Assembly: GCA_965248695.1 (NCBI GenBank)
Contig: CBDFKD010000002.1
Span: 1,248,001 to 1,312,000 of the forward strand
DNA: 64,000 nucleotides
From: Acidobacteriota bacterium
Lineage (GTDB): Bacteria; Acidobacteriota; UBA890; WLXD01
Reading direction: 5' to 3'
The notes beneath the pieces were generated by a model, which saw nothing but the letters and a program-made list of their open reading frames with translations, had not been told where the DNA came from and did no database searches. Positions 20,271-22,614 of this stretch are shown here, in pieces (position 1 is the stretch's first letter; every line of letters begins with the position of its first letter). The position numbers and the translations under genes are program-made.

Positions 20271-20422
20271 GGTGCTCTCGCAGGAGGCGTGTTTGATCGG
20301 ACGTGATCTCCACGGTTGTCTACGCACCAACGATAGGCCACCATCCCGAACATCTCGACCCAACATCGGCTCAGAGAGGCCAACGTGAGCAACGGGCTGG
20401 TCGCAAGGTCCCGGGTAGTGTC

Positions 20423-21253
20423 CTAATTTGAACCTGCTTCGTCGATCAGCCGACCGATTGACCAAAGCGAGCCCGTCACCCCGGCTTCCATAGCGGGGGT
20501 GACTCGCAGAGTCTGGTGGATGCGCACGAAGTTATAGTGAGCGAAGTGCAGCGCCACGGCCGCGCGCAGGTTCTCGACCTTCTTGCTGAACGCGTTTGTT
20601 AGGCGAGTAAATCTGCGCATGTTCATGCGCATGGTCAGGTTCTGCCGCTCGATGTGGCTGGTGCAGATCTTGTCTGGTGCTGGCTGGCCGACGATCGCCC
20701 TGCGACGGGTGCTCGTGACGTGCGGTGGGCCGTACCTACCCGGACCGATTGGCTCGGCTTCGTAGCACTTTACGATCTGACCGTAGTCGACGTACGGACC
20801 GAATGCCTGCTCGGTCGCTTCGACGTAGGCGGCCAGGGCGTCGGAGGAAAGCTGCACGCGGTTGGCGAGGCGCGAAGCGACATCGCCCATGAACGAGGTA
20901 GCGGTTTCTAGGTCGCGCTTGCCGACGCGAAAAGCTGGGACGATCTTCGATTCCGGGTCCAGCGCAACGAACGTCCAGAAGTCACCCAAGCAGCGCGGGT
21001 CATCGGAGAGCTTTAGGTGGCGCTGTTTCTTCCCGACATAGGCCCAGATCTCATCAACCTGAATCTGCTCGCAAGGAAGGTTCTGCATCCGGTCATCCAT
21101 CGCCGCCGCGCAACCGCTCCCGACGCGGACGAGCAACCGCATGATGGTGTCGCGGTGAACGCCGGTCATGCGCTCTGTCGCGCGAATCGAGCAACCCTCG
21201 ACCAAGCATCGGATGACCGCTTCTTGCTTCTCTCGCTTCAGGACGTTAGCCAT
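20423..21253 (-). CDS. IS1-family DDE transposase (single ORF, HTH, no N-terminal Zn finger)
   Basis: [57 protein letters not shown]. The stop codon lies inside the left TIR. Confidence 0.9.
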
Positions 21254-21367
21254 GTTGTTCTCCTTAGCATGGAGAACAATCTAGCATACAGTCGGAGATT
21301 AGCCAACTTCCTGCTTGACTAAATTCGGGATTATATGCGAGATTAGTCTGGAAGTGGGGCGGACAAC

Positions 21368-21463
21368 GGAAGGTGACCCATTGGATGGTCCAGTAACGGG
21401 GTTTACACTCGGAGGGCTCGCTGTCACCGCAGCGAAGGGGTTCGACTCCCTCACCTTCCGCTA
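21368..21463 (+). tRNA. Non-canonical tRNA-like RNA with a 9/3 cloverleaf (allo-tRNA-like); anticodon arm degenerate
   Basis: Acceptor GGAAGGTGA/TCACCTTCC (9 bp), discriminator G, then CTA. T arm GGG-TTCGACT-CCC. Long variable arm TCGCTGT-CACC-GCAGCGA. D arm ATTGG-ATGGT-CCAGT. Anticodon arm CGGG-GTTTACA-CTCG. Confidence 0.7.
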
Positions 21464-21513
21464 TCAGCATCCCATGGAAGGATAAGTGTAGCATCGACAG
21501 GAGGGCCTATCGA

Positions 21514-22293
21514 ATGGCGAAATCGCGTAGTCCTCGGAAGCCGTCAATTGACTTAGAGCGCGCAGTGGAGCTGGCCACGATACTTCACAGGCAGATTCTC
21601 AATCATTCTTCCGCCAAGGAAACCGTTCTGCAGCACTGGGGATACTCGCCGAAGAGCAGCAACGGGCTTGTGGCATTCGGAGCGTTGCGTCAGTTCGGAC
21701 TGATCGACCAGAGGCGCGGCCAAGACGCGAAACTTAGCCCCTTGGCTCTCGAGATTGTGCTGGATGAGCGGCCCGATTCTCCCGAACGCGACGAAGCTGT
21801 CTGTAGGGCAGCTTTGAATCCGATACTCCACCAGGAACTGTGGAGCAAGTACGCCGGTAAGCTACCTTCAGACGCTGAAATCAAGTTGTACTTGCAGCGT
21901 GACAAGAGCTTCACTCCGAAGGGTGCCGAAGATTTCATCAGCCAGTTTAGGGCAACAATCGCATATGCTAATCTGGACGCATCGGGCAACGGGGCCGAAG
22001 AAACAAGCCCCGAGCAACGGGAGCAAGACGAGTTGATCCCTTCCGAATCATCCGCAAACAGACAGCCCGCTACGCCACCGCGCGTGCCCCTAGAGGGCGT
22101 AGCGCAGATAGACCAGGCGACCTTCCCGCTCGATGAAGGGCCAGCGGTTCTGCAATGGCCAGCTGATCTCAGTCTCGCCAGCGTCGAAGAGTTCGAGGCC
22201 TGGCTTGATCTGGTGAAGAAGAAGGTCCGCCGTGCGTCAACAGCCCGTTCACGGCAGCCGGATACTGAGGATGACCGAAGTAGCGCCGACTGA
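21514..22293 (+). CDS. Hypothetical passenger protein, possible winged-helix N-terminus
   Basis: 259-aa ORF with RBS GGAGG; RSP..PSIDLE.A...WGYS..S..G..ALRQFGLI pattern. Function unknown. Confidence 0.7.
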   Translation: MAKSRSPRKPSIDLERAVELATILHRQILNHSSAKETVLQHWGYSPKSSNGLVAFGALRQFGLIDQRRGQDAKLSPLALEIVLDERPDSPERDEAVCRAALNPILHQELWSKYAGKLPSDAEIKLYLQRDKSFTPKGAEDFISQFRATIAYANLDASGNGAEETSPEQREQDELIPSESSANRQPATPPRVPLEGVAQIDQATFPLDEGPAVLQWPADLSLASVEEFEAWLDLVKKKVRRASTARSRQPDTEDDRSSAD

Positions 22294-22573
22294 GCTACAG
22301 CGCCACGTCGAGCGGCTGCACGGCTGCCACGCAGAGCACCAGAAGGCCGTAGCCGTCCGCGAGGAATTCCAGGGAGAGGTGGCTTGGGAAGGCGCGGTCC
22401 ATATCTACAGCCTCACGGACCATCCCTCAGCGACACGCTGCTACGCGTGGTCATCGCCCGTAGAGGGCTCCGAGAATCGCCGCTTTTACGCTGTATTGCA
22501 CACGGAGAGGGTTGATTCTCCTGTGAAGGCCGTCCGGGCGGCGATCGTAAGCGACCACGGGTCGCAAGCCTGA
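22271..22573 (+). CDS. Hypothetical 100-aa passenger protein
   Basis: RBS GAGG directly before ATG 22271; MTEVAPTELQRHVERLHGC...WEGAVHIYSLTDHPSATRCYAWSS...SPVKAVRAAI. Ends 7 nt before the right TIR. Confidence 0.75.
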   Translation: MTEVAPTELQRHVERLHGCHAEHQKAVAVREEFQGEVAWEGAVHIYSLTDHPSATRCYAWSSPVEGSENRRFYAVLHTERVDSPVKAVRAAIVSDHGSQA

Positions 22574-22614
22574 TTCCCGATTCAAATTAGGACACTACCA
22601 GGTCCCGCGGTGTC

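Follow-up and report, generated by a model that had tools for sequence, protein, structure and literature searches.

The 64,000-nucleotide stretch of Acidobacteriota DNA analysed here, called the window in the following, contains a mobile element of the IS1 family of insertion sequences (IS), which carries a gene for an RNA resembling a transfer RNA (tRNA) and two protein genes in addition to its transposase gene (Table 1). Between its ends, the element measures 2,186 bp. The longest inverted pair recovered in a repeat search corresponds to the 19-nt element ends, which are complementary at 19/19 nt, and direct reading reproduced the coordinates and features given in a preliminary description of the locus, i.e., the ends, the target-site duplication and three open reading frames (ORFs). 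The same type of ends together with 8-bp duplications was found in eight related elements, six with exact duplications and two with a 7/8 match, and therefore neither the ends nor the duplication in the window are due to chance. A genome of the same genus (G069; loci, L, and genomes, G, carry our own numbers) harbors a 92%-identical element at another target site, flanked by its own 8-bp duplication. A check of the 5.89-Mb host genome for further copies left this single full copy, and the guanine-cytosine (GC) content amounts to 58.9% for the element versus 65.1% for the genome. Perfect 19-nt ends, an exact 8-bp duplication and an uninterrupted transposase of 276 residues confirm the earlier view of an intact IS1-family element, and its recent insertion and its carriage of passengers are supported as well. 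The element is an autonomous IS1-family transposon, recently inserted between msrB (SelR domain, E 3e-48) and an FG-GAP repeat gene.

Table 1 Features of the IS1-type element and its passengers (positions refer to the window).
Feature	Position	Strand	Basis
8-bp target-site duplication, left copy, AGGTCCCG	20406..20413		Identical to right copy, direct reading
Left terminal inverted repeat, 19 nt, GGTAGTGTCCTAATTTGAA, start GGTAGTG	20414..20432		Exact reverse complement of 22581-22599
IS1-family DDE transposase, 276 aa, single uninterrupted ORF; TAG stop within left inverted repeat	20423..21253	-	Pfam, relatives, conserved residues
Divergent intergenic region between transposase and RNA gene; promoter presumed	21254..21367		17 nt before RNA nearly the same in L016
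(9/3) allo-tRNA-like gene, 93 nt including discriminator G73, no encoded CCA	21368..21460	+	90.4 bits with model R1; Rfam; alignment
Anticodon TTA (UUA, cognate to UAA stop), 7-nt loop GUUUACA	21403..21405	+	Rfam alignment, ARAGORN on L016
259-aa passenger protein; winged-helix-like N domain ~5-157, disordered linker 158-196, C domain 199-246	21514..22293	+	ORF list, predicted structure
100-aa protein (113 aa from GTG 22232), predicted alpha-beta4-alpha fold	22271..22573	+	ORF list, predicted structure, family search
Right terminal inverted repeat, 19 nt	22581..22599		Direct reading and repeat search
8-bp target-site duplication, right copy, AGGTCCCG	22600..22607		Direct reading

The tRNA-like RNA combines a 9-bp acceptor stem with a 3-bp T stem (loop UUCGACU), a long variable hairpin and the discriminator base G73. 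Relatives were gathered by a pattern scan, through protein-anchored loci and with a covariance model, R1, built in this analysis. Among the matches listed, 13 copies, including metagenome loci, were aligned, and all RNA counts over 13 refer to these copies; L171, L245 and L252 are short metagenome loci with little flanking DNA. In this alignment 92.1% of the cells are paired as compared to 79.0% in shuffles (0/500 reach 92.1%), while sliding the partners in the same 13 copies yields about 50%. The 9-bp acceptor stem, the 6-bp variable stem and the 3-bp T stem are each paired to 100%, and both the T arm of three pairs with a 7-nt loop and G73 are present in 13/13 copies. The ninth acceptor pair covaries (UA in seven, AU in four and CG in two copies), and changes on both sides were seen for 16 pairs overall and for 5/6 pairs of the variable stem. 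A D hairpin is present and aligned poorly, with 64% of cells pairing in the three columns tested. The stretch CCC after the acceptor stem is able to pair with a GGG after the anticodon arm. With R1, the copies score 68-94 bits. The fully paired stems and the covarying ninth acceptor pair show, on sequence comparison, that the RNA is real, under selection and of 9/3 build. The tRNA-like RNA of the preliminary description thus holds up as a conserved, structured gene with compensatory changes across the 13 copies.

The anticodon loop is fixed as NU-NNN-CA, and variation is confined to the three anticodon letters, which read UUA in seven copies, CUA in three and UUG, UAU and UCG in one each, so that 10/13 match a stop codon. 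The Rfam alignment places the UUA of the window under the UCA of selenocysteine tRNA (tRNA-Sec), to which positions 21368-21459 are a sub-threshold match (28.8 bits versus a gathering score of 47, E 0.0067). At a relaxed threshold, ARAGORN reads the RNA copy of L016 as tRNA-Stop(tta). ARAGORN predicts 59 tRNA genes in the host genome, including two for tRNA-Sec. In its first eight acceptor letters, the RNA agrees with canonical serine tRNA (tRNA-Ser); the pattern scans returned at least 235 matches, and among the matches listed 145 are called tRNA-Ser by ARAGORN and 165 are normal tRNAs in all.

These properties are those of allo-tRNAs, which were first found as sub-threshold tRNA-Sec matches (Mukai et al. 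2017, PMC5389517; all statements on this source refer to its accessible part). Allo-tRNAs have a 12-bp acceptor branch built as 8/4 or 9/3 instead of 7/5, a long variable arm, G73 or U73, a long D stem with a tetraloop and an anticodon stem longer than canonical. Their anticodons are unrelated to serine, and Acidobacteria hold 9/3 forms matching UAA (PMC5389517). The window RNA resembles these allo-tRNA(UUA) species in its 9/3 branch, long variable arm, G73 and UUA anticodon, and equally in being a sub-threshold tRNA-Sec match from the same host phylum with transposon and toxin-antitoxin genes nearby. Its first nine acceptor-stem letters equal those of an entry 'tRNA2, allo-tRNA' from peat metatranscriptomes (PMC5389517). 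Unlike the UUA allo-tRNAs listed there, which have A37, the loop of the window subgroup ends in C37-A38; its anticodon stem comprises only 3-5 pairs, whereas the published stems are longer than canonical, and the possible CCC/GGG pairing between the flanks of acceptor stem and anticodon arm is a further difference. Four loop motifs of the C37 subgroup occur in the table of PMC5389517 solely within variable loops, and CUA, UUG and UCG in 9/3 form are absent from its 9/3 anticodon list. By sequence, the RNA is a member of the described (9/3) allo-tRNA class and falls into a subgroup that combines C37 with a short anticodon stem and was not found in the accessible published table.

A link of allo-tRNAs to transposable elements and toxin-antitoxin genes has already been suspected, with the IS family left unnamed and no element shown in the accessible text (PMC5389517). 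The earlier remark that no described IS1 element with a tRNA-like gene was known is therefore wrong in part, as the RNA class and its suspected mobility are on record. We found no published description of a defined IS family with allo-tRNA passengers or of the companion 100-aa gene, although Figure 4A of PMC5389517 may show more.

Of the relatives recovered by the pattern scans, those with >=1.5 kb of context (5/5) are all part of elements that have inverted repeats and duplications at their borders. They comprise L016 (same genus, other target site), L039 and L069 (Kofleriaceae), L058 (Pyrinomonadaceae) and L053 (Planctomycetales), the last of which shares these ends, is 1.5 kb long and contains nothing but the RNA and a homologue of the 259-aa protein, transposase and 100-aa gene being absent. 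When 151 Acidobacteriota genomes were searched with the RNA model only, four genomes matched and 4/4 hits were located in such IS1-like elements. The RNA is present at 5/15 places found through the 100-aa gene, and an RNA of the window type was seen at 0/40 other loci with an IS1-like transposase, each from a different genome. Only the transposon subgroup carrying the 100-aa gene yielded the RNA, and the hosts of the elements are Acidobacteriota, Myxococcota (Kofleriaceae) and Planctomycetota records.

Within the elements, the place of the RNA varies, as it lies upstream, downstream, divergent or convergent relative to the protein genes; the order RNA, 259-aa ORF, 100-aa ORF occurs only in the window and L016. 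In 7/13 RNA loci (L039, L058, L069, L245, L281, L283 and L284) the 3' end of the RNA faces the 3' end of the 100-aa gene, either directly or with a small Arc-like repressor gene in between, and in L252 the Arc-like gene alone faces it. Inspection by eye revealed a hairpin and T run on the operon strand beyond the RNA gene in L245 and L252. The RNA-bearing element of L281 (2167-3496) has Gp49/HigB-like, HTH_3 (Xre-type) and DUF3467 genes as further passengers. A toxin-antitoxin pair (Gp49/HigB-like beside HTH_3) and the RNA thus reside on one transposon, and shared carriage of this kind may explain why allo-tRNAs have been reported 'in the vicinity of toxin-antitoxin systems'.

The ends of IS1 elements read GGnnnTG, and their target duplications are short (8-9 bp). 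ISMhu11-type IS1 elements have a single transposase ORF without frameshift, lack the N-terminal zinc finger and can hold passenger genes. The window transposase passes the Pfam DDE_Tnp_IS1 cut-off (37.1 bits, cut-off 24.1, E 4.7e-9) and stays under that of the NCBIfam transpos_IS1 equivalog (70.5 versus 100 bits). Its closest annotated relatives come from plasmid records (45-48% identity), and 3/4 of the best full-length rows are named 'IS1 family transposase'. Residues D67/E68, D99 and E202 are conserved, and the single ORF starts with a helix-turn-helix (HTH) in which no CxxC pairs were seen by eye. IS1-type DDE transposase, terminal inverted repeats and 8-bp duplication are those of the IS1 family. 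The single ORF, the HTH N-terminus without CxxC, the GG...TG ends and the passengers inside them would also fit the ISMhu11 type. The element differs in missing the equivalog cut-off, in the conserved second gene of its subgroup and in the tRNA genes among the subgroup's passengers, a type of passenger that is not known to have been described for an IS.

The element belongs to a subgroup composed of a DDE transposase, a conserved alpha/beta protein of ~100 aa and variable passengers; the passenger space of other elements is occupied by a Gp49/HigB-like and HTH pair, an aspartyl protease or a DUF5343 protein. The sample for the protein-anchored searches comprised 401 Acidobacteriota genomes, in which IS1-like transposases were tallied at roughly 100 places in 59/401 genomes, the unpublished genome G152 being included in this tally. 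The 100-aa gene occurs at 15 places in 13 genomes of this sample. At 9/12 further places it directly follows an IS1-like transposase gene on the same strand and inside recognisable ends, with no 259-aa homologue nearby at any of the nine. Among 17 mapped elements, the transposase was found in 16/17, the 100-aa gene in 14/17 and the 259-aa family in 7/17. Its repeated position directly downstream of the transposase and its presence in 14 of these elements therefore mark the 100-aa gene as a companion of the transposase lineage and not as free cargo.

A longer reading frame of the 100-aa protein spans 22232-22573 (+) and encodes 113 aa. The 100-aa form, which starts at ATG 22271 and overlaps the 259-aa ORF by 23 nt, was chosen because the copy in a related genome starts at the equivalent ATG and has a stop upstream. 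The family comprises 2,309 clusters at E <= 0.001 in a library of 1.84 billion proteins and has no annotation. The protein gave no match in Pfam, NCBIfam, PADLOC (E 0.1) or PHROGs, and no relatives in plasmid records at E 1e-5. Its fold is predicted with high local confidence (pLDDT 92.9) as a helix, four strands and a helix. Foldseek returned nothing at E <= 0.001, and VIA-align gave a best Z of 6.2 with cystatin-like folds at Z 4-5. The model thus suggests a generic alpha+beta arrangement with no specific structural relative, by which a function is not indicated. Three homologues with 66-67% identity (L278, L279 and L280) were found in G118, a genome of the same genus. The fetched loci (4.8 to 8.4 kb) contain no transposase match and one has an IS end directly after the gene; they may be remnants or non-autonomous elements.

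The 259-aa ORF is preceded by AGGAGG 9 nt before its ATG. Its family is rare, with 16 proteins in 5.8 billion and a presence in 8/401 genomes. The predicted structure divides into a well predicted N domain and a small C domain, which are connected by a disordered linker. Foldseek again returned nothing at E <= 0.001. Middling scores were obtained by VIA-align for the FokI recognition domain (Z 8.3 over 152 residues), 3bhw (Z 8.1) and BrxA (Z 7.7), followed by many MarR proteins at about Z 7. At this level of similarity, the modelled N domain resembles tandem winged-helix DNA-binding modules and points to no particular function. No match was found in PADLOC at E 0.1, and a single weak match in PHROGs (E 0.013) is to a family of unknown function.

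A distant relationship of the 259-aa protein to DUF5343 (PF17278, function unknown) may exist, as judged from sequence profiles. The N domain aligns over 139 columns, with RSPxYP corresponding to PPYxSY and ALKxFGLI to ALRFLxLI, and the families compare with an hhalign probability of 45% (E 2.2e-4) and an Atlas feature score of 0.89. In L284, a DUF5343 protein is encoded just upstream of the RNA, in the same place as the 259-aa homologue elsewhere. In contrast to DUF5343 proteins, 0/15 members of the 259-aa family match PF17278 at E 1, the Pfam cut-off not being reached, and DUF5343 genes at other loci have neither tRNA-like genes nor IS1-like transposases in their vicinity. DUF5343 was rejected as a general partner of the RNA, which is present at 1/30 DUF5343 loci, this one being the already known L284; there was no Rfam tRNA-like match in the 20 loci scanned and no IS1-like transposase at the other 29.

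The preliminary description had combined the RNA and both proteins into one module spread by transposition, i.e., an RNA antitoxin with its toxin, an anti-phage system or a translation-modulating system. All three parts do occur together in 4/9 RNA-bearing elements with enough context (window, L016, L039 and L069) from two phyla and in three gene orders, and in the window the two ORFs overlap. The restriction of the RNA to the subgroup with the 100-aa gene and the facing 3' ends also speak for a connection. The parts nevertheless assort separately across homologous elements. A 259-aa homologue accompanies the RNA in five of these nine elements (window, L016, L039 by profile comparison, L069 and L053) and is lacking in the other four (L058, L281, L283 and L284). 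Conversely, 6/11 loci with a 259-aa homologue have no RNA (L017-L022, comprising L017, L020 and four non-IS loci). The 100-aa gene goes with the transposase and was found with neither RNA nor 259-aa homologue in L282 and L285-L288. In other elements, the passenger slots are taken by unrelated genes, namely those for the toxin-antitoxin pair, the aspartyl protease and the DUF5343 protein mentioned above, and neither of the window's two proteins matches a known defence or toxin-antitoxin model. We therefore consider a three-part system improbable.

Our reading of the locus, to which we assign a probability of roughly 60%, is that of a mobile IS1-type element with a passenger allo-tRNA whose most likely role, inferred from its build, is that of a serine-inserting ochre suppressor. 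The suppressor part of this picture has, within it, about even odds. The RNA would be produced as a small RNA of its own, receive serine from the seryl-tRNA synthetase of the host and read UAA; wobble at U34 might enable it to read UAG as well. It probably is a substrate of seryl-tRNA synthetase, because G73, the conserved variable arm and the tRNA-Ser acceptor letters are present. In E. coli, (9/3) allo-tRNAs put in serine whatever their anticodon (PMC5389517). The RNA would act in trans, given that elements differ in where it lies and how it is oriented with respect to the protein genes. It may be a weak ochre suppressor that is tolerated since, of the three stops, UAA is used least in this host of 65% GC, where TAA ends 351/4,753 ORFs of >=300 aa. 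The 100-aa protein might serve the transposon as a transposition partner or regulator, or work with the RNA, and the 259-aa protein might bind nucleic acid. The transposon would be the vehicle that spreads these tRNAs across phyla, which would explain why allo-tRNAs are patchy and often lie beside toxin-antitoxin and transposon genes.

A number of observations weigh against decoding as the role of the RNA. With default settings, ARAGORN calls no tRNA anywhere in the 64-kb window, the RNA at 21368-21460 included, and the Rfam tRNA-Sec score is under the gathering value. The anticodon stem has 3-5 pairs in 11/13 copies, while a C-C mismatch closes the loop in the other two, and 13/13 copies have C at position 37, an unusual base there in tRNAs that decode. 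In E. coli, no suppression was reported for six aberrant allo-tRNA(UAU) variants (PMC5389517). No gene of the element needs UAA read-through, as its own stops are TAG, TGA and TGA, and in 14 elements the anticodon bears no relation to the codons at which the transposase, 259-aa and 100-aa genes stop. The related elements are moreover kin, and counts over them are not counts of independent events; the pattern scans required the acceptor sequence GGAAGGTG, which biases the census to one acceptor sequence.

A weak anticodon stem and C37 imply either low decoding efficiency or another role, and a non-decoding tRNA mimic is for this reason kept as the main rival to the suppressor. Such a regulatory or decoy RNA of the transposon could act as antisense to the transposase/100-aa operon at its 3' end, serve as a signal for processing, or be bound by the 100-aa or the 259-aa protein. 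Operon transcripts of L245 and L252 would carry the RNA in antisense, given the hairpin and T run beyond the RNA gene, and the facing 3' ends in seven loci, the Arc-like gene opposite the RNA in L252 and the confinement of the RNA to the subgroup with the 100-aa gene all fit a regulator. The failure of ARAGORN at default settings and of the Rfam gathering score to pick up the RNA points in the same direction, as does the published suggestion that translation does not make use of certain aberrant allo-tRNAs (PMC5389517). An antisense role is, however, at odds with the window and L016, where the RNA lies upstream of the operon on the same strand and does not face it, and L053 has the RNA without 100-aa gene and without transposase. 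A mimic also does not account for a loop that keeps U33 and its seven letters and varies only at the anticodon positions, nor for the retention of features read by a synthetase, i.e., G73, a Ser-type acceptor stem and the variable arm. On balance, we regard the mimic as rather unlikely. Low scores with general tRNA tools and a fold energy z-score of -2.22 could also be taken as signs of a decaying pseudogene or a chance tRNA-like stretch without function. Compensatory changes keep every stem in 13 copies from three phyla with differing flanking cargo, and all of them score well with the family model, which renders this explanation very improbable indeed.

If the RNA is a suppressor, there is no sign that the genes of its own element need it. 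Programmed read-through of the transposon's genes was rejected as a candidate on account of the unrelated stops in the 14 elements. A single in-frame TAG interrupts an otherwise intact transposase in the RNA-bearing L281 (~codon 54) and in L027. Across the roughly 100 transposase places, however, only a few in-frame stops were seen, with all three codons represented (TAG 2, TAA 3, TGA 3), and read-through is therefore dismissed as a general mechanism. Recoding phages carry suppressor tRNA genes that serve the phage's own recoded genes. The element in the window resembles them as a mobile element with a tRNA whose anticodon matches a stop codon, and is unlike them in that no gene of it contains or ends in the cognate codon.

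Further odd tRNA-like genes were observed near IS1-like elements. The host genome (G000) contains IS1-like copies with a different odd tRNA gene at C2:5219932-5222489 and C1:3-2561, which are 99.96% identical, and at C2:2238653-2239811. This tRNA has a canonical 7/5 cloverleaf of 75-76 nt and the anticodon GGA for a serine codon, but lacks the long variable arm required in serine tRNAs. In the 99.96%-identical pair, it precedes the transposase gene by 231 nt. Similar GGA-type genes are found beside IS1-like transposases in L016 (9189-9264) and L017 (10425-10500). Near other IS1-like transposases, L334 has a 73-nt tRNA gene with anticodon AGC (3061-3133) and L335 an 89-nt gene with anticodon UGC (3753-3841), while in L347 an 88-nt gene with anticodon UAG (2911-2998; 32.7 bits with R1) is situated 100 nt upstream of the transposase gene. 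In the Chloroflexota locus L027, an (8/4) allo-tRNA-like gene with anticodon CAG (4001-4091) lies 270 nt outside an IS1-like element (4363-6982). L020, an element with 100-aa gene and without allo-tRNA, has a 72-nt stretch (6412-6483, +) between the transposase and 259-aa genes, which, by eye, shows an acceptor-like stem of 7 bp that includes G3:U70, together with a perfect T arm and an ACCA end that is encoded; the best tRNA model score is 15.7 bits.

An 88-nt tRNA-like family occurs at >=38 loci between L024 and L238 (e.g. L024 4001-4088, L043, L046 and L047), mainly in Solirubrobacterales (Actinomycetota) records and metagenome contigs. By our own reading, it has an 8/4 acceptor/T build and the anticodon GAU or GAC, and ARAGORN calls none of its members by default. 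Actinomycetota are outside the phyla named for allo-tRNAs in the accessible part of PMC5389517. tRNA genes as a feature of all IS1-like elements were rejected, since ARAGORN found a tRNA within 2 kb at 5/40 further loci, where about 2 are expected (59 tRNAs per 5.9 Mb); 3/5 of those observed are odd and close. tRNA passengers seem to recur in several lineages of IS1-like elements.

With regard to the insertion site, msrB (19809-20273, -) has its ATG at 20273, and the element is located 133 nt upstream of it. On the other side, the first candidate start of the 1,112-aa FG-GAP-like repeat protein gene (22615-25953, +) is 8 nt past the element. The element looks to occupy a shared divergent promoter region of both genes, and its insertion may alter their expression. 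A sigma-70 scan found no promoter for the cargo. No empty site was recovered: in four same-genus genomes the msrB flank is 81-91% identical and synteny stops there, and the contigs of 4 runs contained no joint spanning the element.

The window provides a clean and complete allo-tRNA example inside an intact mobile IS1-type element, and the related elements identify an IS1-type transposon as the usual home of this RNA subgroup in Acidobacteriota, Myxococcota and Planctomycetota. This offers a concrete route for horizontal spread of allo-tRNAs, and the fellow passengers in L281 possibly explain their proximity to toxin-antitoxin genes. In addition, a large unannotated family of 100-aa proteins, with its 2,309 clusters, is identified as companion of this transposase. 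(9/3) allo-tRNAs are in use as chassis for genetic-code expansion, a field to which a naturally mobile C37 variant is possibly of interest, and decoding by a transposon-borne stop-codon tRNA is now directly testable. More tentatively, and with some doubt on our side, this IS1-family lineage could be a cross-phylum vehicle for working nonsense-suppressor and missense tRNAs, with the tRNA and the 100-aa protein being part of the biology of the transposon. If so, a jumping gene would alter how its host reads the genetic code, and the tRNA together with the 100-aa protein could dose transposon expression or make loss of the transposon costly.

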